This document shows, piece after piece, positions 6,821 through 64,000 of a stretch of DNA of 64,000 nt. How positions within the stretch are numbered: position 1 is the stretch's first letter; each line of letters opens with the position of its first letter. Source of the DNA: a phage; the sequence record PX436236.1, one strand, 5' to 3'. The translations under genes and the position numbers were made by a program. The notes beneath the pieces are model-generated. The model worked only from the letters and a program-made list of their open reading frames with translations. It was not told the DNA's origin and ran no database searches.

Positions 6821-6895
6821 TGGTATCCCGCCCTGGGATCGAACCAGGACCGCAAACTTAGAAGGATCGTATGCTATCCATTACACCAGCGGGAC
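6821..6895 (-). tRNA. tRNA-Arg (anticodon TCT)
   Basis: Cloverleaf folded by hand: 7-bp acceptor stem, T-arm CCTGG/TTCGATC/CCAGG, anticodon loop CTTCTAA, encoded CCA. Confidence 0.75.
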
Positions 6896-6900
6896 GTAGT

Positions 6901-6977
6901 TGGTGACCCAGACCAGATTTGAACTGGTAACCTTTCCCTTATGAGGGGACTGCTGCTAACCATTGAGCTACAGGGCC
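6901..6977 (-). tRNA. tRNA-Met/Ile (anticodon CAT)
   Basis: T-arm ACCAG/TTCAAAT/CTGGT, anticodon loop CTCATAA, encoded CCA; acceptor stem has one T-T mismatch, D-arm atypical. Confidence 0.6.
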
Positions 6978-52655: not shown

Positions 52656-53821
52656 GTTCAAAAACTATGCAACGTGAAGGCTTTCCTAATATTAGTATAC
52701 GCCTTTACGAAGATTATGACGCCTGGTTAGAGCATCGTTTTGTTGAACTAGGCGCGACATTTACTACTCTAACAATGCGAGATGGGCTTTACGGTAGTAA
52801 TGAAGGGTTGCTTCAGTTTTATGATGCAAAGAACCTTCATACTAAAATGGATGGTGAGCAGATTATTCAAATTTCTGTTAAGAATGCTAACTCTGAACGT
52901 ACCCAATCAAGAATTTATGGAAGTAAACACTTTGCTGTAGGAGTGGATTCGAAGGGCGACAATATCATAACAATACAACTCGCCCCAATCCACTTTTTAG
53001 AGAATCTTAAATTTAGTCGTATGTTCTTCCCGAGTGTTCAAGAAACATTAACTGAAATGATTGGTGTTATTTATCAAGACCGTCCGCTTCTTGCTCCTCC
53101 TTTGAACGGGATAAACGTTTACGTTCCTAATGTTCCTTGGTGTGATTCAATGGACCGTTATATGGAATTTGTACGAGAAGTAGGTATGGCCGTTGAATCT
53201 GATAAATTTGTATTTGTCTGGGAAGATATAGATGGTATTTCTATCATGGACTACGAATTTATGGTTAACCAAGAGCCTATTAATTTTGTAGTGGGTGAGC
53301 CGCGATTAATAGGTCAATACGTTCAAGATATGGATACACCTATCGCATTTGATTTTGAATGGTTAACTAAAGCCAACCAACATTCCAGAAAACCATATGA
53401 AAACGCTACTGTATACGCCCACTCTTTCTTAGACAAAAACGCCACACGAATTACTTTTGGTGACGGGCAAAACAGTATATTGGTTTCTCGCTCCGGTGGA
53501 TATTCTGATTATACCTACCGAAACGGTTTTGAAGAAGCCGATAGATTAGTTACTATGGCCCAATACGATGGATACGCTCATTGTAAGGTATATGGTAACT
53601 TTGAACTAACTCCAGGCGATAAGATTAATTTCTATGACCCTAAAAACCAATTCCAGTACGATTTTTATGTAGACGAAGTTATTCATGAAGTGAGTAACAA
53701 TACATCAATTACAAACCTTTATATGTTTACTAATGGTAAGCCTATTAAGATTGAAGAACCGCCGAAGGTTAAAAATGAACTTAAAACTGATACTCCCGAT
53801 CAAGAAAATAACGCTGGGTGA
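52652..53821 (+). CDS. 27: gp27 baseplate hub
   Basis: 389 aa (T4 391); synteny. Confidence 0.85.
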
Positions 53822-54302
53822 CAAAGAGATTTCCATTCCTAAATTGGGTCTTAAACACCAGAAATTGGTTAAAGATGAAAAGGACCCTTACAAGGCCCTC
53901 TATATGACAATGGAATCCATTTGTAAAGGACTGTCTGCAGCAGAAACAGATTTTGCTGCTTTACACCTTTTAGAATTCAACGGACGATTAAAAGAAAAAG
54001 TAACTAAAGATGGATTCACATATAATTTAAATGACCTTTATATTTGCCAACGACTTGAATTCCAGTTCCAAGGTAAGACATTTAAATTTAAATCACACGA
54101 ACCATTTCAAACATTTGGTCCTGTTGATAGTGTACTACAATCTCTTTATCTTGGTGATGATGTACCAGATTTTCTGGATATGCCTGCCTTTGTTGCTACA
54201 TGGGCCGACGATATAACTTCTACTGTAGCTATCCCTGGTCCTAATGGTCCTATCAAAGGATTGCTTAAAATCATGGATATCTTAAATGAAGAACGAATCT
54301 AA
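53775..54302 (+). CDS. 28: gp28 baseplate hub distal subunit
   Basis: ATG at 53775 with GAAGG SD gives 175 aa (T4 177); the ATG at 53733 has no SD. Confidence 0.75.
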
Positions 54303-56022
54303 TCAGAATAGTTTTCGTCGCAATAAACTGATTGAAGAAATGGCTCCTCAGCGTCGTGCTGAGGCGCTAGCCCAAACTCAGAACGACGAATTAGGAAATA
54401 TATCAGATGTTTTATCCGATTCCCAGGCGGCGTCTGAATTGCTCTCTGAAGTTGTTGAGACAAAGTCTAACCAGATTATTAATTCTGTAGACCGAGTAGA
54501 CAAAAGCGTCCAAGATGTTGTCGCTGGAACAGAATTAACGGCTGAAGCCATATCAGAACAAACCCAACAGTCTAAAGCTCTTTCGGATGCATTAAACGAA
54601 AAGATTAATAAGCTTTCTAATATGTTGGAGGCTAAATTTTCTGGTATTTCTATTCCACCGGAAGGGAGCTCATTAAAGGTTATTGAAGACTCTATTCCAG
54701 AAGAACCTAAGGCCGAAACTCCTAAAGTTCCTGCTGTTGTTGAAGATATTCTTCCACCTGAAGATAATAAACCTGACGCCGAATTTATGCCTGAGCCTCC
54801 TAAAAATTCAGATGAAGGTAAAGAAGGTGATAAGACTTCTCTTTCCGAGAAAATCGAAGCCCTTACTAAAATAACTGAAAAGGGATTTAAAGCTTCTATA
54901 GGCGTCGCTGATAGAATTTCAGGCATGCTTTTTAAGTATACCATTACCGCTGCCGCTGAAGCTGCTAAACTCGCAGCAGGTTTAGTCCTTTTAATATTTG
55001 GTATAGATGCCATTCGCGTATACTTCCAATATTTCATGGACCAATTTGAGTCAGGGTGGAAAGAATTTAACGATAAGTTTAAAGAGTGGGGACCATTACT
55101 TGAAGGGCTAATGACATGGGCCAAGAATGCTGAAGCCATGTTTAGTGAAGGAAACTGGTTAGGTCTGGCTGAAGCTATTATTCGTGGTATGGTTAATCTT
55201 ACCAAAAATATGGCACAACTTTTAATGCTTGGTATTTCTAAGTTGATTTCTGCTATTTTAAGTAAAATACCTGGTATGGGTGATTTAGCTGAAAACGTAG
55301 AGGCTTCTGCTTTAATGTCATATCAGCAAAATACCGGAGCCACTTTGGACGATGAAGACCAAACTAAAGTGGCCAAGTACCATGATAGACGTTCAGCCGA
55401 GGCTTTAGAAACAGCCGAGAAAATGAATAAGAAGTATAAGGATAAACCTGAGCTTATAAACCAGGCAGAGAAATACGGTAATCTTACTAAAGAACAAGCC
55501 GACCAATTACGCGCAGGTGGAATTGACACAAGCTTCCGTGACCTCCCTGAAGAAGAACGTTTAGAGTATTTCAAGAAACGTGATAAAGCTCAGGCTGATA
55601 TTATTCGTTTGACACAAACCGCTGATAATATAATGAAGCCAGATTCTAAAGATATCGAAAATGCTAAAGCATTTAAAGCTGATATCGAGAAACAATTGGC
55701 CGACCCTATTATGGCTAAAGGTGGGGCACCGAAAGACCTTAATATCCAGCAATTACTTGATAAGATGAATAAATCTTTAGAGAAATTTAATGAAGCTGAA
55801 AAGCCTAAACCTGCTTCTGTAGCGGAATCTCCTGAAAATACCCAGGTTAAAAAGGTTGATGAGCAAATGAGAGCAAAGGAAAATGCTAAATATAGTCAGC
55901 AAGCTCCAACTCAAATAAATCAGCAAACGAATATCAAGAAAACGAGTAAGACAAGCTATAATATGCCCCCACAGTCCTCTACTCCTGCTCCTGGTATGCG
56001 TCAAGCTACTAAAGTTAATTAG
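54286..56022 (+). CDS. 29: gp29 tail tape measure / baseplate hub
   Basis: 578 aa; synteny. Confidence 0.85.
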   Translation: MKNESNQNSFRRNKLIEEMAPQRRAEALAQTQNDELGNISDVLSDSQAASELLSEVVETKSNQIINSVDRVDKSVQDVVAGTELTAEAISEQTQQSKALSDALNEKINKLSNMLEAKFSGISIPPEGSSLKVIEDSIPEEPKAETPKVPAVVEDILPPEDNKPDAEFMPEPPKNSDEGKEGDKTSLSEKIEALTKITEKGFKASIGVADRISGMLFKYTITAAAEAAKLAAGLVLLIFGIDAIRVYFQYFMDQFESGWKEFNDKFKEWGPLLEGLMTWAKNAEAMFSEGNWLGLAEAIIRGMVNLTKNMAQLLMLGISKLISAILSKIPGMGDLAENVEASALMSYQQNTGATLDDEDQTKVAKYHDRRSAEALETAEKMNKKYKDKPELINQAEKYGNLTKEQADQLRAGGIDTSFRDLPEEERLEYFKKRDKAQADIIRLTQTADNIMKPDSKDIENAKAFKADIEKQLADPIMAKGGAPKDLNIQQLLDKMNKSLEKFNEAEKPKPASVAESPENTQVKKVDEQMRAKENAKYSQQAPTQINQQTNIKKTSKTSYNMPPQSSTPAPGMRQATKVN

Positions 56023-56030
56023 GATTAATA

Positions 56031-57119
56031 ATGAAAGTAAAAGAACTTGACTTTGATGTAGCCTCCTTGTTTAAAGGAGGTTCAAAGACCTCCGCAGGTC
56101 AATCTAAAACACCACCAATAAAAACCACGGTAACCGCTCAGTATCCAGCTGAGCGGGCTTCAGGTAATGATACCTCAACCGATATGGTATTAAACGACCT
56201 CTATAAAAATGGATTGCTTTTTACCGCATATAATTTTAGTTCTCGTGTATCTCCGGATTTGCGTAACGACCGTTCGAGTCAAATGACTAAAAAGTTCTCA
56301 AGTGCAGCCAGCAAATTAACAGGCAATAGTGGAACATATAGTGCTGTTAAAAACTTATTTGGTGGAAATACTAAGGGCGTTAAATTTGATACCCAAGCCT
56401 TAGCTAATATCCTTTTACCTCGTTCTAAATCTGATGTGGATTCCGTGTCACATAAATTTAATGATGTTGGTGAGTCCTTAATTACTAAAGGCGGTGGTAC
56501 TGCTACAGGTATTTTAAGTAACGTTGCTAGTACCGCGGTATTTGGTGCATTAGAATCTGTGACCAACGGCGTAATGGCTGATTCAGGCGAACAGATATAC
56601 ACTACAGCTCGTAGTATGTACGCCGGTCCGGATAACCGTACTAAGGTATTCACTTGGGAAATGACTCCACGAAATGCCCAAGACCTTATCCAGATTATTA
56701 AAATATACGAAATCTTCAACTATTATTCTTACGGCGAAACGGGTAATTCGGCTTTCGCAGGTGAATTAAAAGAGAAGATTGATACTTGGTATCGTTCTAC
56801 ATTTAAAAAAGAAGCTATTGACAAGTTTGATGGTAAGCTATTAGGGGAAAGTATTACAAGCTTCCTTTCTAATGTTATTGTGGTAAGTAACCCAACCATT
56901 TGGTATATCCGAAACTTTGGTGATAGCAGTTCATATGATGGTCGTGAAGATATTTTTGGCCCATGCCAAATCCAGAGTATCCGTTTTGATAAAACTCCGG
57001 ACGGTCATTTTAACGGATTGGCTATTGCTCCTAACTTACCATCTACGTTTAGTTTAGAAGTTACTTTCCGTGAAATTATTACTCTGAACCGTGGCTCACT
57101 TTATACGGAAGGATTCTAA
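56031..57119 (+). CDS. 48: gp48 baseplate tail-tube cap
   Basis: 362 aa (T4 364). Confidence 0.85.
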   Translation: MKVKELDFDVASLFKGGSKTSAGQSKTPPIKTTVTAQYPAERASGNDTSTDMVLNDLYKNGLLFTAYNFSSRVSPDLRNDRSSQMTKKFSSAASKLTGNSGTYSAVKNLFGGNTKGVKFDTQALANILLPRSKSDVDSVSHKFNDVGESLITKGGGTATGILSNVASTAVFGALESVTNGVMADSGEQIYTTARSMYAGPDNRTKVFTWEMTPRNAQDLIQIIKIYEIFNYYSYGETGNSAFAGELKEKIDTWYRSTFKKEAIDKFDGKLLGESITSFLSNVIVVSNPTIWYIRNFGDSSSYDGREDIFGPCQIQSIRFDKTPDGHFNGLAIAPNLPSTFSLEVTFREIITLNRGSLYTEGF

Positions 57120-58048
57120 TGTATACTTTACAAGAATTTCAGAATCAGGCAATTAATATTGACCTACAAAGGAATAACCTGTTTAGTGTGGTATTTGCCA
57201 CAGTTCCTTCTTCTAAATCTCAGACGCTCCTCGACCAGTTCGGTGGAGCTTTATTTAACAATATCCCATTGAATAGCGATTTGTTTGGTATTACACAAGG
57301 AGAGTTGACCCAAGGTGTTACGACATTAGTGACAGCGGGCACTCAGAAGTTGATTCGTAAGTCAGGCATAAGTAAATATTTGATTGGAGCTATGTCATCC
57401 AGGGTTGTGCAGAGCTTACTAGGAGAGTTTGAAGTAGGTACATATCTGATGGATTTTTTCAATATGGCCTATCCTACGGCAGGTCTTTTAGTCCACGCCG
57501 TTAAAATCCCGGATAATACTTTGAACTATGAAATGGATTTGAACCACAACTCACCTAACATCAAAATTACCGGAAGAGAATATTCTCCATTAGTATTAAG
57601 CTTCCGTATGGATTCTGAAGCTGCTAACTACCGTGCTTTTAATGATTGGGTCAATAGTGTTCAAGACCCTATTACACAATTAAGAGCATTACCGGAGGAT
57701 GTTGAAGCTGACATTCAAGTCAACCTTCATTCCCGTAATGGATTACCACATACGGTAGTAATGCTTAATGGTTGCGTTCCAATGAGCGTATCTTCCCCGG
57801 AATTATCTTACGACGGTGATAACCAAATTGCTTCATTTGATGTTACATTTGCTTATAGAAGTGTACAGACTGGTGCAGTTGGCAAACAAGCTGCTTATGA
57901 ATGGTTGGAAGATAAAGTCCTTAAAGGCGTGGCGGGTATAAGTGAGAGCAATTCCCTGAGTTCTTCAGTAGCTAAATTAAGCCGACTTTCAGGAGCTTCT
58001 AGTGGATTAACAGGATTGGTTAATAGTGGAATATCGAGGTTGTTATAA
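57119..58048 (+). CDS. 54: gp54 baseplate tail-tube initiator
   Basis: 309 aa; synteny. Confidence 0.85.
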   Translation: MYTLQEFQNQAINIDLQRNNLFSVVFATVPSSKSQTLLDQFGGALFNNIPLNSDLFGITQGELTQGVTTLVTAGTQKLIRKSGISKYLIGAMSSRVVQSLLGEFEVGTYLMDFFNMAYPTAGLLVHAVKIPDNTLNYEMDLNHNSPNIKITGREYSPLVLSFRMDSEAANYRAFNDWVNSVQDPITQLRALPEDVEADIQVNLHSRNGLPHTVVMLNGCVPMSVSSPELSYDGDNQIASFDVTFAYRSVQTGAVGKQAAYEWLEDKVLKGVAGISESNSLSSSVAKLSRLSGASSGLTGLVNSGISRLL

Positions 58049-58053
58049 CAAAA

Positions 58054-58075
58054 AAGGAGAGCATATGCTCTCCTT
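58054..58075. terminator. bidirectional terminator between gp54 and convergent ORF
   Basis: Perfect 22-bp palindrome AAGGAGAGCAT/ATGCTCTCCTT flanked by A and T runs. Confidence 0.6.
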
Positions 58076-58082
58076 TAGGGGT

Positions 58083-58373
58083 TTATTTACGGAACGAAAT
58101 GAAACCTGCTGTGGTCATTAGTGGTTGCTTTTTAACAAACACCGTAACCGAAATAGGAGCTTCGGATTCGAGTTGTCCTGTCACTACACCGTTAAAAATG
58201 TTTTCGGTTTGTTCTGGATAAGAAAAATTCTCAACAGGTCGGATATCAAACTGTTTGTCTTCACCGAAAACTCGACGTAATTCATTACCCACTGCACTGT
58301 CAAACTCTTCAGAAGCAGGGATAACGTTTTCAACTACCAGTTCTTGACCATTAAAACGGAATGCAGATTTCAT
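58083..58373 (-). CDS. hypothetical small protein (96 aa) downstream of alt cluster
   Basis: ATG with GAGGAG SD; own GTTTAC/TACTAT promoter. Confidence 0.45.
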   Translation of the reverse strand: MKSAFRFNGQELVVENVIPASEEFDSAVGNELRRVFGEDKQFDIRPVENFSYPEQTENIFNGVVTGQLESEAPISVTVFVKKQPLMTTAGFISFRK

Positions 58374-58401: not shown

Positions 58402-58431
58402 ATAGTACCACATCCTTGTGGTGTTGTAAAC
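58402..58431 (-). promoter_or_regulatory. early promoter (GTTTAC-N18-TACTAT) plus conserved leader
   Basis: Upstream of 58083-58373; leader matches 1210-1245. Confidence 0.5.
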
Positions 58432-60554
58432 TACATTTTGAATTTATTTGATAAAGAAGAGATATCCAAAGACGCTGCAAGGATTTCCATAGCCTCGTTG
58501 CTTTCAGAAACAGATTCATTAACCAAGAATTGACTGAACCCATCCATCAGGCGAACTTCACCAGTTTCCATCAAATGGTCACCATCGTAAACAGATTCGC
58601 TGAGCTCTGAAGGAGGCGTTACGGTAGCTTCCATAAGGTATTTGTGAGATACTCTATCATTCATGGCAAAAGCCGCTACTTTATCAACCTTCAACAATAA
58701 TCCACGCGGAAGGATAATTTCTGCTTCTTCGGCATATTCTGTAAGGTCACCAGGAGCGATAACTTTAACTGCTTCAGCACCTCGAATAACCATACCAATT
58801 TCAGCAATTCTATCTGCAGGACCTTCAGGTGCAATTGGATTACCAAACTCGTCTTCTTCCCATTCTACCTCTTCGTCATCGACTTCACCCACATCAGATG
58901 AACTACCACTAGCCAATTTAAACAACTCATCAGCGGAGGACAAAGAACCTTCACCACCAACAAAAACGGCTTGGTTGTCGAGGGCCATATAATTTTTACC
59001 GAATTCACCAAAGATGTTAGGCTTTAATGAGGCTGACACAAAGTTCTTAAAGTAAAATGTTTTGTTATCGATATTATGGCGCAGAATTTTGTATGGCAAA
59101 TCCTGACCACGATACAAAATAGTACCCTTAGGAAGTTTAATACCCTTAGTAAATGCTGAGTCTAAATCCTTAATCAATTTAATAGCCGTTGTATTGTTTT
59201 CGGATTCAGGTTTACCTAAAAGGAATAAGTTCATAGGAGCATATTCAGCCGCGCAATATTCAATAATAGCATTGCTTTCATCTTTGGTTAGGTCCTTAGG
59301 TTTAATGAGCTCGCCTGAATAAGCATATGCATCACTAATAGAATCGTTAATCAGTTTATAAACGGCTTCCATAGCGAAAGCAATTCGAGATGCTTTCTCT
59401 GAAGGGGAACCCTTAAAACGGGTACTCAGGTTATTAACAATTTTCTTAATAATATCCAGACTATTGGTTGTATTGATTTGCGAAAGGCCACTTAAAAGTC
59501 TATCGACTTCTGTATTAAAAAATGCCATATTATTAGAGTAAATTTCAAACCCTTGTTTATCTCTATTAGCATAATTTAGTTTAAATTTACTATCAGTCAT
59601 TAAAGCGTGTGTGAGAGCAATAGTGTATCTAAAGTTGGCAAGGTCCTCGCTCTTAGATTTAAACTGAGAAGCCTGACGCATTTTAGTAATGGCACCTTTT
59701 TTAAAGTTCTGACTAATCTGTTCAATACCTTCGTTCTCAGGGCCTTCAGCCGTGTGAACCGGTACAGAAGCTTCAAACTCGTTATAAACCTGCAATTCTT
59801 TAGGGGACAAAGTTTCAGGCTCAGCAGTAGAATACTGCGCCGCCGCTGCCATACGACGCGAAATCTTAGTACGAGTAATGACAGCCTTATCAGTACGTTT
59901 CTCTTCAACTTGTGCAATAGATGCCGCTACGGCTTCGACCTTACTTACAGCCTGGCCGGTTTTCTTAGAAACATACACTTCGCCAACTTTAGACTCAACT
60001 TTAGTATAAAGATCGGCATTAATTTCAGGCATACCCTTGATATCTTCAATATTAGCACCACGACGTACTAAAAGAACGTAGGTATGTTTTCCGCTGAATT
60101 GGAACATGTCGTCAACAACTTTAAACTTACCACCGGTACGAGCCATAGCCAAGCGAGCTAATACGCGCTGAACGGTAGGACCTTTACCTTTCATTTTCTT
60201 AGTAGGGAAACGGAACAAAACCGCGTCCATTTTAAGTTTGTTTATTTGTTCATATATGGTATCGAAAATGGTGTTCAGTGTACCGAGTGGATCGGTACCC
60301 AAACCACCCTTGAGTTCTGCCGGGGCGCCTTTAGCAGATAAACTCATTAGGATGACATGGACGTACTTATCGCCTGGCTTAACCATTTTAATAGCGTCTC
60401 CTTGAGACGCATAAGATACCATACGAGCAACCAGATTATCATTACCTGGTGCTTGGATAGAGAAAATCTGTGGAATACCGGAACCCGGTTTAAGATTTGT
60501 TACTGGATAGTTTTTAGCGGAATCACTATCAAAAACCTCATTTAAATTTTCCAT
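58431..60554 (-). CDS. alt: Alt-like ADP-ribosyltransferase, paralogue 1
   Basis: 707 aa; conserved N-terminal ~240 aa shared with paralogue 2; C-terminal R-S-E ART motifs (LYRGQ, SASL, EEAEIILPRG). Confidence 0.8.
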   Translation of the reverse strand: MENLNEVFDSDSAKNYPVTNLKPGSGIPQIFSIQAPGNDNLVARMVSYASQGDAIKMVKPGDKYVHVILMSLSAKGAPAELKGGLGTDPLGTLNTIFDTIYEQINKLKMDAVLFRFPTKKMKGKGPTVQRVLARLAMARTGGKFKVVDDMFQFSGKHTYVLLVRRGANIEDIKGMPEINADLYTKVESKVGEVYVSKKTGQAVSKVEAVAASIAQVEEKRTDKAVITRTKISRRMAAAAQYSTAEPETLSPKELQVYNEFEASVPVHTAEGPENEGIEQISQNFKKGAITKMRQASQFKSKSEDLANFRYTIALTHALMTDSKFKLNYANRDKQGFEIYSNNMAFFNTEVDRLLSGLSQINTTNSLDIIKKIVNNLSTRFKGSPSEKASRIAFAMEAVYKLINDSISDAYAYSGELIKPKDLTKDESNAIIEYCAAEYAPMNLFLLGKPESENNTTAIKLIKDLDSAFTKGIKLPKGTILYRGQDLPYKILRHNIDNKTFYFKNFVSASLKPNIFGEFGKNYMALDNQAVFVGGEGSLSSADELFKLASGSSSDVGEVDDEEVEWEEDEFGNPIAPEGPADRIAEIGMVIRGAEAVKVIAPGDLTEYAEEAEIILPRGLLLKVDKVAAFAMNDRVSHKYLMEATVTPPSELSESVYDGDHLMETGEVRLMDGFSQFLVNESVSESNEAMEILAASLDISSLSNKFKM

Positions 60555-60557
60555 TAT

Positions 60558-62639
60558 TTACCCTTGGATGAATTTTTCTGGGATGTCATAGAGGTCTATG
60601 CATGAAGCCAAAAGAGGCAGTACATCAAACCGTGTAGATTTAACAAATGAATCAAAAGATACAGGGCTTTCGGAAGTATCGAAGTCATCTTGATATACGA
60701 CCAACTCGCCGGTTTCCATTAGTACGTCACCATCATATACCACAGATTCTTGAAGCTCATCTGTTGTCATAACTTCAGCTTGGATGAGTTTTGTATTACT
60801 AGATGTTGTTCCATCATTATTAGAAGCATCTGTTATTTTATTAACTTTGACCATTAATCCACGTGGTAGAATAACTTCAGCTTCAGTTGCTATTCCGAGA
60901 TTTCCTGGATATACGACATTAACTTTATGAGCTCCATCAATCGCCCATCCTATTTGAACTTTAACATAATCAGGATTTTCTTTATATGCTCTTATTTCAT
61001 TAGGATTAATAGTTATTCCTTCTTCATTTTTATCAACTGTCAATTCGTTGCGAACTTCCGGTTCTAAAAGACCAATACCAGCGTGCGTAACACCAAAACG
61101 TCCGAAAATTATAGGAGTTAAAGAAGTAGATACAAAATTTCTAAAATAAAACACTTTATTTTTAACTAGTGCTTCGTATATAGGAGCAGTCATACTCTGT
61201 GCACGATAAACTGTAATGCCTTCCGGTATACGGTCACCATTTTCAAAAGCTGAATCTAAATTATTTACAGCGGATTCGATATCTTTTTCGCTCATAACCT
61301 CATAGTTCTGAGGATTATAACGTCCTAAAAGAAGATTATTTATGTCTGTATATCCTGAACCACAATATTCTCTGATACCACGCTTTTGTGATGGAGTATA
61401 TTTAGAACCTTCACGAGCAATAGTAATATCAACCATAATACCACCACCCACACCAGCAAAACTATACACGCGTTTTTTAATGAACTTAGTCTTGGCTGCT
61501 TTCCACTTGGCCTCTGTCAATTCGTTCCAAAGGTCATCAGGTTGGCCTTTACGAGTTCTGTTATGGATAGCCAGCCACTCGCCTTTATATTCTTCGAAAA
61601 TGGTATTAATAGCAGAGGCATATTTTTCTAGAGCTTTAACAGATGTCAAAGGTTCGTTTTTTATTGCTGTAAGAATTTTCTCTTTAATTTTCTCTTGGAT
61701 TTCGCCAATACCGTGAAGTGGGAACATTTTATAATCGTAATGCAATTCTTCAGCAGTGCCTTCAGCCACTATATTAGCAACCTTATTTTTAGCCGCAGGA
61801 GAATTGTTATTAGTGACCATTTCCTGGGCCTCAGGGATTAATGGAACTGTTGCCGGTTTATTAAAATCTACTGCAGTAGCTTCATATTTCTTAAACAGCT
61901 CACTTTCATTACGATAAGATTCTAACGATTGACTTGCTGCAATAGCACGTCGAGAAATCTTAGTCTTGGTTATAACCATTTTATCAGTGCGACGTTCTTC
62001 AACCTTAGCAATACTACCGGCGATAGCAGTTTCTTTAGTAACCTGCACGCCTTCTTTTTTAGAAATATAAACTTCACCGACATCAGAATCTACCTTAGTA
62101 TACAATTCAGCATTAATTCCAGGCATACCTTTGATATCTTCTATATCAGCTTGTTTACGAACTACCAGGATGTAAGTATGTTTACCGGTAAATTGGTACA
62201 TAGCCGGAACTACTTTAAAACGTCCACCTGTTTTCTGTGCTACCAAACGTTGGATAATCCGTTGAACGATAGGGCCTTGACCTTTCATTTTCTTAGTAGG
62301 GAAACGGAACATCACGGCATCCATACGAAGCTTTTTAACTTGGTCATAAACCACATCAAAAATAGTATTAATCGCATCTACGGGAGTAGGGCCTAGGCCA
62401 CCTTTAAGTTCGGCAGGCGAACCTTTAGCTGAAAGGCTCATAAGGATAACGTGGGCATATTTATCACCCATCTTAACCTGTTTAATAGCATCACCTTCAG
62501 AAGCATAGGATACCATACGTGCTACTAACTGAGACTCCGCGTCTCCAATCTTCCAAATCTGAGGTACTTTAAGTTTTGGGTTCAAGTTCACAACAGGCAG
62601 TGTACCTTCGGACTCGAACACTTCATTTAATTGGGTCAT
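60558..62639 (-). CDS. alt: Alt-like ADP-ribosyltransferase, paralogue 2
   Basis: 693 aa; ART motifs VYRAQ, STSL, TEAEVILPRG. Confidence 0.8.
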   Translation of the reverse strand: MTQLNEVFESEGTLPVVNLNPKLKVPQIWKIGDAESQLVARMVSYASEGDAIKQVKMGDKYAHVILMSLSAKGSPAELKGGLGPTPVDAINTIFDVVYDQVKKLRMDAVMFRFPTKKMKGQGPIVQRIIQRLVAQKTGGRFKVVPAMYQFTGKHTYILVVRKQADIEDIKGMPGINAELYTKVDSDVGEVYISKKEGVQVTKETAIAGSIAKVEERRTDKMVITKTKISRRAIAASQSLESYRNESELFKKYEATAVDFNKPATVPLIPEAQEMVTNNNSPAAKNKVANIVAEGTAEELHYDYKMFPLHGIGEIQEKIKEKILTAIKNEPLTSVKALEKYASAINTIFEEYKGEWLAIHNRTRKGQPDDLWNELTEAKWKAAKTKFIKKRVYSFAGVGGGIMVDITIAREGSKYTPSQKRGIREYCGSGYTDINNLLLGRYNPQNYEVMSEKDIESAVNNLDSAFENGDRIPEGITVYRAQSMTAPIYEALVKNKVFYFRNFVSTSLTPIIFGRFGVTHAGIGLLEPEVRNELTVDKNEEGITINPNEIRAYKENPDYVKVQIGWAIDGAHKVNVVYPGNLGIATEAEVILPRGLMVKVNKITDASNNDGTTSSNTKLIQAEVMTTDELQESVVYDGDVLMETGELVVYQDDFDTSESPVSFDSFVKSTRFDVLPLLASCIDLYDIPEKFIQG

Positions 62640-62647
62640 AATCTATC

Positions 62648-64000
62648 CTATTTAAATAAATTTGCTAATTTTTCCATAGAATCTTCATACATAATTCTAT
62701 CATAATTTCCAAACGAGAATCCGGTGCTATATGAATTTTCCTCTGTGATTTGCTCGGTAGCTACAACTTCACATTCCACTAAAACATATTTACCAATTGA
62801 ACCCATAGGTCCCTTGGAAGCACCGTATACTTTATTAATCTTAAGCATAACCCCACGAGGAAGAATTACTTCGGTTTCTGTAGACCAATTAGCCAAGTCA
62901 CCGGGCACAATAACCTTAATTTTATCAGCACCTTTAATAATTAACCCTAGCTTAATGGTATCTCTAGCACTTCCGGTCGCACTTTTAATGGTGTCTTCAA
63001 GATTACTATCTATATCGCTAGAAAGAGCTTCAGGGTCTAAGTTGGATTGAGCATGACCCATTTCACCGAAAATATTAGGAGCCAATGAAGTTGATGCAAA
63101 AATAGGAAGATACATCACCTTATGTTTTATAGAATTCAAAGCCATTTCGGTAGGCATTATCTGAGAACGATACACTATGGTTCCTTTAGGAAGTTTTGTA
63201 CCATTTTCAAATGTAGAATCCAACTCACCAATCATTTTTATCATTTCATCGGTGGTATCTGTTTTACCTAGCAAAAAGTTGTTTATATGGTTGTAGCCGC
63301 CACGAGTATACTTTTTGACTGCCTCTTCTTGAGGTTTGGATAAATTAGGATTATCAGATATCTTAAACAATGGTTGGATAGATTTTGTATAAACTGCTAC
63401 TAAGGATTTTATTACTTCCTTGATTTTAGATTCTCTAGCCCAAGTACCTTTAACTGAATCATCTAAAAGGGCCGCAGCGACTAGTCTAAGAATGTCTACA
63501 TTAGATTTACCTGATTTTAAAGCCTCTATGACACTATTAGATTTATCTAAAGAATCTGATGCCTCTAAAGCAAACTTTATATCAGCAATTAGTTTAAGTT
63601 TGCGCTCGTCTACTTCAAATGATGGATTAACACCGTTAAAAATATAATCCAAATATTCTGCCATTTCTTTAGAGGCGTCTTTTAATATTTTATTACTGGC
63701 TAAAGCTATTTGGCTTTCTTTAGAATCTTCAGAAGAATGAACGGAACTAGTAGCAGAATAATCTGCATAAGCTTTTTTGTGCTCTGCCGAAAATTTACTC
63801 AATCCTGTAGGCTCGGCGGTAGAATATAACGCATTTATAGCGGCCCGTTTAGAAACCTTAGTCTTGGTTATAACCATTTTATCAGAACGTGATTTTTCTA
63901 TTTCGTCTATAGACTTAGCTATAGCTTCTAATTTGGTAACATCTTCGCCTGTTTTCTTTGAAACATACACATCACCGACTTCAGATTCGACTTTAGTATA
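62648..64000 (-). CDS. alt: Alt-like ADP-ribosyltransferase, paralogue 3 (partial; N-terminus beyond window end)
   Basis: Frame homologous to paralogues 1 and 2 up to window edge; ART motifs VYRSQ, STSL, TETEVILPRG. Confidence 0.75.
   Translation of the reverse strand, partial: YTKVESEVGDVYVSKKTGEDVTKLEAIAKSIDEIEKSRSDKMVITKTKVSKRAAINALYSTAEPTGLSKFSAEHKKAYADYSATSSVHSSEDSKESQIALASNKILKDASKEMAEYLDYIFNGVNPSFEVDERKLKLIADIKFALEASDSLDKSNSVIEALKSGKSNVDILRLVAAALLDDSVKGTWARESKIKEVIKSLVAVYTKSIQPLFKISDNPNLSKPQEEAVKKYTRGGYNHINNFLLGKTDTTDEMIKMIGELDSTFENGTKLPKGTIVYRSQIMPTEMALNSIKHKVMYLPIFASTSLAPNIFGEMGHAQSNLDPEALSSDIDSNLEDTIKSATGSARDTIKLGLIIKGADKIKVIVPGDLANWSTETEVILPRGVMLKINKVYGASKGPMGSIGKYVLVECEVVATEQITEENSYSTGFSFGNYDRIMYEDSMEKLANLFK

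Follow-up and report, generated by a model that had tools for sequence, protein, structure and literature searches.

What does a phage gain from three diverged copies of alt, a gene that is non-essential in phage T4? The question is raised by positions 58431–64000 of a 64,000-nucleotide stretch of phage DNA (sequence record PX436236.1; the whole stretch is called the window below), where three intact open reading frames (ORFs) stand in tandem on the minus strand and encode paralogues of the ADP-ribosyltransferase (ART) Alt, here termed P1, P2 and P3. Alt is the textbook enzyme that a phage injects with its DNA, and to our knowledge the T4 protein is the only Alt enzyme that has been studied. 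Our answer, which we hold to be probable, is that P1–P3 are functional mono-ADP-ribosyltransferases of the Alt family that are packaged and injected, that the array was built by recombination of cassettes, and that the targets of the three enzymes are likely to differ.

An earlier note on this DNA had described three consecutive minus-strand genes, of 707 aa, 693 aa and a third truncated at the window edge, separated by 3 and 8 bp, and the ORF coordinates agree with it (Table 1). Shine-Dalgarno (SD)-like sequences lie directly upstream of the P1 and P2 start codons. The 5′ 543 nt of P3 are beyond the window edge, which leaves only the last ~59 residues of its N-terminal domain within the window; full-length P3 (631 aa) was read in phage WG01 (RefSeq NC_031928), whose copy is identical at 449 of the 450 visible residues (2 nt and 1 aa differences over 1353 nt). 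All pairs of paralogues match by BLASTP at ~40% identity (P1–P2, E 2.6e-143; P1–P3, 2.3e-154; P2–P3, 5.2e-145). Identity is 62–67% over the N-terminal ~240 aa (N-domain), 9–13% in the middle segment and 33–38% in the ART region; the N-domain of P1 is 42% identical to that of T4 Alt. The shared N-terminal ~240 aa and the diverged middle segments of the earlier note are thus borne out, except that the MVSY...GGLG stretch it quoted for P3 lies outside the window and was seen in the WG01 copy.

That P1–P3 are Alt-family ARTs of the R-S-E type is supported by profile matches, by the modelled fold of P1 and by the catalytic residues. All three exceed the gathering score of Pfam PF03496 (ADPrib_exo_Tox; 23.4 bits), with 63.3 bits for P1, 124.5 for P2 and 53.7 for P3, and all match PHROG 802 (Alt-like), P1 with E 1.6e-250 over residues 1–707, P2 with 5.4e-263 over 1–692 and the P3 fragment with 4.1e-108. 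PF26846 (Tevenvirinae_ADPRT) is precomputed on a close homologue of each (P0001, 96% identical to P1; P0077, 99% to P2; P0017, 99.8% to P3). Scans of P1–P3 against NCBIfam and PADLOC gave no matches. The catalytic R, S-x-S and ExE occur in the correct order in all three proteins, in the contexts Y-R-x-Q, S-T/A-S and E-x-E-[VI]-I-L-P-R-G, as had been claimed, and R, S and ExE are kept in 74 of 75 full-length family members from related loci. Arginine-specific ARTs have E-x-E, as opposed to Q-x-E. An AlphaFold model of P1 from a 71-sequence alignment (predicted local distance difference test, pLDDT, 76.8; predicted template modelling score 0.71) consists of an alpha/beta N-domain, a middle part made up of helices and an ART core. 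In a Foldseek comparison with the Protein Data Bank (PDB) this core matches the structures of Vis, Certhrax, C3, CDTa, VIP2 and iota (E 4e-7 to 1e-4, probability 1.0, target-normalised template modelling (TM) score ~0.6). To judge by their sequences, P2 and P3 probably share this fold; in an alignment of P2 with BECa, YR and ExE fall on the toxin's catalytic YR and EYE. A PDB sequence search gave no match for P1 and only marginal matches to binary-toxin ARTs for P2, and it found no solved Alt structure. Two outcomes that the earlier note had set against its own interpretation, loss of catalytic residues in two copies and C-terminal domains lacking an ART fold, are contrary to what we found: the residues are intact in all three and the P1 model matches ART structures.

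The phage belongs to known company. The 6-kb region is 98.7% identical to Escherichia phage vB_EcoM-E33 and 98.1–98.4% identical to WG01 (98.4%), PSD9, LQ5, ABTNLS3 and PSD2002, which identifies the source as a Dhakavirus (T4-like coliphage, Straboviridae). The three-gene array is already in the public annotation of WG01, LQ5, E33, PSD9 and others, with no substantive difference between WG01, E33 or LQ5 and the window. In WG01 an identical trio is annotated as ‘Alt-like RNA polymerase ADP-ribosyltransferase’, and beyond its third gene (631 aa) come an alt.1 homologue and the DNA ligase gene, not a fourth copy. The published gene table of LQ5 lists the three ADP-ribosylases, with ModB and a further ADP-ribosylase elsewhere in the genome (PMC12895675). 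Our literature search found no paper that discusses the three-gene array. The order of the locus is that of T4: ligase, alt.1, the alt genes, alt.-3, gene 54. P2 corresponds to alta, with 97% identity to alta of IME08, and P1 to altb, with 96% identity to Alt of JS10 (P0001). Compared with the two-copy Dhakaviruses JS98, JS10 and IME08, which have alta and altb, the window adds P3 in the first slot. The nearest relative of P3 is alta of SP18 (Gaprivervirus; 64% identical overall, 69% in the ART domain), which like P3 occupies the slot next to ligase.

Are the copies maintained? Ratios of nonsynonymous to synonymous substitution rates (dN/dS) against the IME08 orthologues are 0.07 for P1 and 0.05 for P2 and similar in each domain, which points to strong purifying selection on both genes. 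Between P3 and SP18 alta (64% identical in amino acids) dS is saturated, and dN in the ART domain is 0.26. The idea that the copies are pseudo-paralogues is accordingly rejected for P1 and P2, on the catalytic residues and dN/dS, and is unlikely for P3. Recent duplication within the genome, or recent gene conversion, was also considered as the origin of the N-domain similarity and set aside, since identity at third codon positions is mostly 33–63%; one possible older conversion tract lies between P2 and P3 (alignment columns 91–135, 73% identity at third positions). A separate observation concerns Escherichia phage 04086, where either a frameshift or faulty assembly splits the P1 gene into ORFs of 270 and 624 codons, counted from stop to stop (L003, 11083–13645); only part of it is annotated in the record.

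The main result beyond existing annotation, a modest new insight, is the cassette architecture of these genes. In every comparison of co-resident copies the N-domain is the more alike (55–89%, against 30–46% for the ART domain). T4 Alt and the Alt of Yersinia phage ZN18, a Tequatrovirus, are 97–100% identical over residues 1–230 and ~86–100% over residues 606–683, compared with 10–37% in the middle segment and ~33–83% in the ART region. P2 and ZN18 Alt, by contrast, are 93–100% identical in amino acids (89–96% in nucleotides) over ART core residues 458–617, with N-domains at ~46% and tails at ~50%. The first alt gene of the ZN18 type, with a T4 N-domain and tail around a Dhakavirus alta ART core, thus looks like the product of a recent cassette transfer between genera. 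Further mosaics are the 684-aa copy of Bp7 (P0006; protein comparison only), with a P1-type N-domain (89%) and a T4-type middle and ART (61% and 77%); P0003, with a T4-type N-domain (67%) and a P1-type effector (43% and 61%); and KIT01, in which the P2 N-domain and tail (94% and 98%) enclose a different core. On the evidence of these alignments, the N-domain (~240 aa) and the propeptide follow the phage lineage and the middle segment and ART domain are exchanged between lineages as a cassette.

The same comparisons bear on how a third copy was gained. From a point 16 nt upstream of P2 onward, WG01 matches the two-copy phage IME281 at 96.9% identity, and the end of the ligase gene, alt.1 and the initial ~700 nt of P3 are collinear with the ligase end, alt.1 and alta 5′ end of IME281 (82.6%). 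P3 has thus come to occupy the first slot, together with the promoter of that slot. Phage QL01 carries a different extra cassette (ART 35% identical to that of P3), located between alta and altb and composed of an altb 5′ end (730 nt), a new core and an alta 3′ end (330 nt). Over its first ~50 codons this middle copy is 100% identical to altb in nucleotides, and the junction ...CCAGAAAAATTCATCCAAGGGTAAATAATGGAAAATTTAAA... is present twice. Unequal homologous recombination through the conserved ends would be expected to produce such an arrangement.

We surveyed alt copy number in 59 IMG/VR loci found by the family profile. About 33 of the 59 have one full copy and 12 have two in tandem; three tandem copies occur in QL01 and Pseudomonas phage PspYZU05, and 44RR has two copies and an ART-only ORF. 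In T4-type loci one full copy is accompanied by alt.-1 and alt.-2, whose products are 58–62% identical to Alt residues 2–63 and 64–118, respectively. Because of this identity alt.-1 and alt.-2 are taken to be what is left of a second copy, as Nolan 2006 (PMC1524935) had already noted; T4 is a reduced state of the locus. The statement that T4 carries one alt gene is hence right for full copies, but misses the remnants and the many Tequatroviruses with two full copies. Two full alt genes are found in Tequatroviruses of the ZN18, PP01 and BF15 type (ZN18 locus L013, 6844–11055), and the ZN18 two-gene pair is covered to at least 80% in 279 phage records. An N-domain query matched 1825 places in 1202 records. 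Three copies are the upper end of a common pattern and not a singular event. The three-copy array of PspYZU05, a distant T4-like phage (L028, 8980–14773), encodes proteins of 648, 645 and 601 aa, whose N-domains are 81% and ART domains 37–46% identical to each other.

Would all three proteins be packaged? The prohead core of T4 contains ~40 copies of Alt (PMC5694885; PMC9026906), and mass spectrometry places the cuts made in T4 Alt by gp21 protease at ITE-6 and LTE-619, which leaves a mature protein of 68.2 kDa (PMC5694885), a mass that our motif mapping reproduces. L/I-x-E motifs stand in the homologous alignment columns at both ends of P1, P2 and P3, and E6 and E653 (P1 numbering) are at least 90% conserved in 71 homologues. 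Ahead of their first alt gene, T4 and the Dhakaviruses share a hairpin, GGCCTTCGGGCC, with a T-run, then a late-promoter box and a strong SD sequence. The box is TATAAATA in T4 and CATAAATA in Dhakaviruses; exact TATAAATA has 0 matches in the WG01 locus, where CATAAATA takes the homologous position. In this lineage the hairpin and late-promoter element stand before P3, and P2 and P1 have no promoters of their own. Virions of other Straboviridae, RB69-like and Klebsiella phages, have been found to contain Alt homologues (PMC6563131; PMC13119998). Because the N-domain, both gp21 motifs and the T4-type hairpin and late-promoter element are kept, we infer, with good support, that all three proteins are packaged.

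By analogy with T4 Alt, late transcription from the promoter ahead of the first copy would cover the alt genes as a single unit, and their products would enter the prohead core. The gp21 protease would then trim both ends after L/I-x-E, and the trimmed proteins would remain in the head, be injected with the DNA and ADP-ribosylate arginines of host proteins. The N-domain and propeptide would serve in addition as homology arms, between which central cassettes could be swapped or inserted by recombination, and the present array would have been built by adding P3 in the first slot, upstream of a resident alta/altb pair. Most likely the three very different cassettes recognise different host targets. 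This is supported indirectly, because no alignment of the middle segments is possible, the insert between S-x-S and ExE differs in length (103, 82 and 72 residues in P1, P2 and P3) and so do the residues immediately before ExE (TEYAEE, G-IATE and ANWSTE), the position of the substrate-recognition loop in C3-like ARTs. For P2, with an ART domain close to that of T4 Alt, modification of Arg265 of the RNA polymerase alpha subunit (RpoA) is plausible.

Several points weigh against an array of three packaged enzymes with different targets. P1 has S-A-S where P2 and P3 have S-T-S, and carries a 64-aa acidic insert (pI 4.05) that is disordered in the model. The short tail of P3 lacks the VYDGDxLMETGE motif of P1, P2 and T4 Alt, so that its processing and packaging may differ. 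The CATAAATA box upstream of P3, a 7/8 match to the T4 late consensus, lies outside the window. If the three proteins compete for the ~40 Alt sites of a head, each would be present in low copy number. Finally, diverged ART domains are no proof of diverged targets.

A wider interpretation, which we advance tentatively and with slightly less than even confidence, is that the T4-like alt locus as such is a polymorphic array of injected effectors, with a lineage-specific head-targeting N-domain (possibly GNAT-derived) and a removed propeptide acting as both packaging handles and recombination arms, and with interchangeable cassettes, each with a different target, possibly defence proteins, traded across genera at one to three copies per genome. 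Its cassette exchange is borne out by the alignments described above. As regards the N-domain, no Pfam GNAT match was obtained even at E ≤ 10. A profile search of 1.84 billion representative proteins returned only 70 N-domain clusters, the great majority of Alt length (~560–712 aa), and a structural search of BFVD returned weak matches (TM 0.4–0.5) to large proteins of other myoviruses, some annotated as deaminase, zeta-toxin or ParB; a role of the N-domain as a widespread adaptor for non-ART cargo was set aside on these results. From its conservation pattern and T4 biology we read the N-domain as a probable lineage-specific head-targeting or core-binding module. Ten proteins of atypical length were scanned with Pfam, and an ART was recognised in four (P0174, P0176, P0166, P0125) and in none of the other six (P0172, P0173, P0169, P0175, P0178, P0170). 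Two of these six, the shortest at 211 and 221 aa, are hardly long enough to carry cargo. Metagenomic P0172, P0173, P0169 and P0175 may represent non-ART cargo on the same delivery module; P0172 (L066:552-3980) is 1142 aa long, with PF26846 as its sole recorded domain.

Among the alternatives, the one that survives best, though we regard it as doubtful, is that the extra copies are anti-defence effectors, each cassette ADP-ribosylating a different host immunity protein or toxin on injection, with the array tracking host defences. Within one genus, cassettes do vary in presence and by swapping: IME08, IME281 and JS10 have two copies, and WG01 and QL01 have three each, in different arrays. T4 Alt reportedly modifies the MazF toxin (a finding attributed to Alawneh and dated to 2016). 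The neighbouring alt.-3 is the locus where T4 mutations, namely those extending the C-terminus of Alt.-3, overcome the CmdTAC defence system (PMC11618068). Against this, the PADLOC and NCBIfam scans matched no family, and the proposal is a special case of different targets rather than a true alternative to it.

It is unlikely that the copies are redundant, all modifying Arg265 of RNA polymerase alpha to raise the dose or to cover the RNA polymerase variants of different hosts. The ExE of arginine-specific ARTs and the common architecture of the three proteins would fit such a role, and T4 Alt itself is promiscuous, according to the passage of PMC5512222 that cites Depping 2005. The low identities of the ART region and middle segment, the differing inserts and the differing residues before ExE speak against it, as does the behaviour of the cassette types, each of which is separately under purifying selection and travels separately between lineages. 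The weakest alternative, that only P2, the T4 Alt orthologue, is packaged and that P1 and/or P3 act after synthesis like ModA/ModB or are catalytically dead decoys, could draw on the atypically short P3 tail and on the S-A-S and long acidic insert of P1, and is made improbable by a full N-domain (not found in ModA/ModB) and both L/I-x-E motifs in all three proteins, by the single upstream late-type promoter element that genes 3 and 8 bp apart share, and by intact catalytic residues and a dN/dS of 0.05–0.07 that includes the N-domain.

Table 1. Features of the alt array (positions in the window; protease sites and propeptides are predictions)
Feature	Position	Strand	Basis or remark
P1, altb-type Alt paralogue, 707 aa	58431..60554	-	ORF; PF03496 E 2.5e-17; phrog_802 E 1.6e-250
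P1 N-domain, residues 1-240 (PF26846 in homologues)	59835..60554	-	identity among paralogues; model pLDDT 87.4
P1 LNE-6 protease motif	60531-60545	-	inside N-domain; E6 at least 90% conserved
P1 variable helical middle segment, residues 241-415	59310..59834	-	9-13% identity to P2/P3; all-helical in model
P1 ART domain, residues 416-653	58596..59309	-	PF03496, model, motifs
P1 Y481-R482	59103-59114	-	
P1 S507-A-S509	59025-59036	-	
P1 disordered acidic insert, residues 517-580	58815-59006	-	
P1 E610-x-E612	within 58713-58730	-	
P1 predicted C-terminal propeptide (54 aa after LSE-653) and stop	58431..58595	-	motif aligned with T4 Alt LTE-619 cleavage site (PMC5694885)
P1 protease sites LNE-6 / LSE-653			predicted mature 71.1 kDa
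P2, alta-type Alt paralogue, 693 aa	60558..62639	-	ORF, Pfam, PHROG, identity to IME08 alta
P2 N-domain, residues 1-237	61929..62639	-	LNE-6 at 62616-62630
P2 ART domain, residues 378-631	60747..61508	-	PF03496 over 378-626, E 4.5e-36
P2 Y478-R479	61197-61208	-	
P2 S504-T-S506	61119-61130	-	
P2 E586-x-E588	within 60870-60887	-	
P2 predicted C-terminal propeptide (62 aa after LQE-631) and stop	60558..60746	-	motif alignment
P2 protease sites LNE-6 / LQE-631			predicted mature 69.5 kDa
P3, third Alt paralogue, residues 182-631 of 631	62648..64000	-	450 codons in frame to window edge
P3 ART domain, residues 400-601	62741..63346	-	PF03496 E 2.2e-14
P3 Y458-R459	63161-63172	-	
P3 S484-T-S486	63083-63094	-	
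P3 E556-x-E558	within 62864-62881	-	
P3 predicted short C-terminal propeptide (30 aa after ITE-601) and stop	62648..62740	-	motif alignment
P3 protease sites LNE-7 / ITE-601			predicted mature 65.3 kDa

Next to the array, the window has an alt.-3 homologue at 58083–58373 (minus strand; DUF5498, 96 aa, 58% identical to T4 Alt.-3), with an early-type promoter-like site of its own at 58402–58430 (GTTTACA, 17 nt, TACTAT). A hairpin terminator at 58053–58076 is common to this gene and the convergent gene 54, the last of a run of baseplate and tail genes on the plus strand (53733–58048) in T4 order: gp28-like, gp29 tail-length protein (578 aa), gp48 and gp54. Far from the array, at 6821–6977 (minus strand), lie adjacent phage tRNA genes, tRNA-Arg(tct) and tRNA-Met(cat).

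A T4 specialist will not be surprised by the three-gene array itself, which is publicly annotated. What matters is that close relatives carry two or three strongly diverged, selectively maintained Alt enzymes, and that the catalytic cassette moves between phage genera as the flanking modules stay with the lineage. A comparison of the target sets of P1, P2 and P3 would offer a direct handle on what Alt-type effectors are for, and the N-domain and propeptide might be adapted as portable tags by which foreign proteins are loaded into T4-like heads.

Among known systems T4 Alt (gpAlt), an NAD+:arginine ADP-ribosyltransferase, shares with P1–P3 the order of N-domain, helical middle, R-S-ExE ART domain and C-terminal propeptide, L/I-x-E at both processing positions, the location between ligase/alt.1 and alt.-3/gene 54 and the position of the upstream hairpin and late promoter. 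P2 is the nearest of the three (47% identical overall, 46% in the N-domain, 63% in the ART domain); P1 and P3 are 32–34% identical to T4 Alt, with middle segments that cannot be aligned. In copy number the two loci differ, with three full genes for the window and, for T4, one full gene and the alt.-1/alt.-2 remnants. T4 ModA and ModB are proteins of ~200 aa that are made early and are not known to be packaged. P1–P3 differ from them in length (631–707 aa) and in having the propeptide motifs and the full Alt N-domain, which a small (~200 aa) stand-alone ART would lack. All belong to the same Alt/VIP2 R-S-E clade of phage ARTs (PMC5512222).

The C3-like and binary-toxin ARTs (Vis, Certhrax, C3bot, CDTa, iota Ia, VIP2, BECa) have the same ART fold and R/S-T-S/E-x-E arrangement, at 12–19% identity to the Alt proteins, in which an insert of 72–103 residues separates S-x-S from ExE. 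Delivery differs too: Alt travels in the phage head, whereas the toxin ARTs are secreted or enter by a pore-forming B component. Polymorphic toxins and the MuF-fused or polyvalent phage effectors (Zhang 2012; Iyer 2017, 2022) follow the same logic of a conserved delivery module with recombining cassettes (PMC3482391; PMC5512222; PMC9503650), and the alt locus likewise combines a conserved N-terminal region with recombining C-terminal toxin cassettes. Its delivery module is PF26846 and not MuF, and its cassettes are so far almost all ARTs. No cognate immunity gene stands beside any cassette, the gaps of 3 and 8 bp holding no intervening ORFs, and because of this the locus is not a member of the polymorphic toxin class; it works like a polymorphic effector array.

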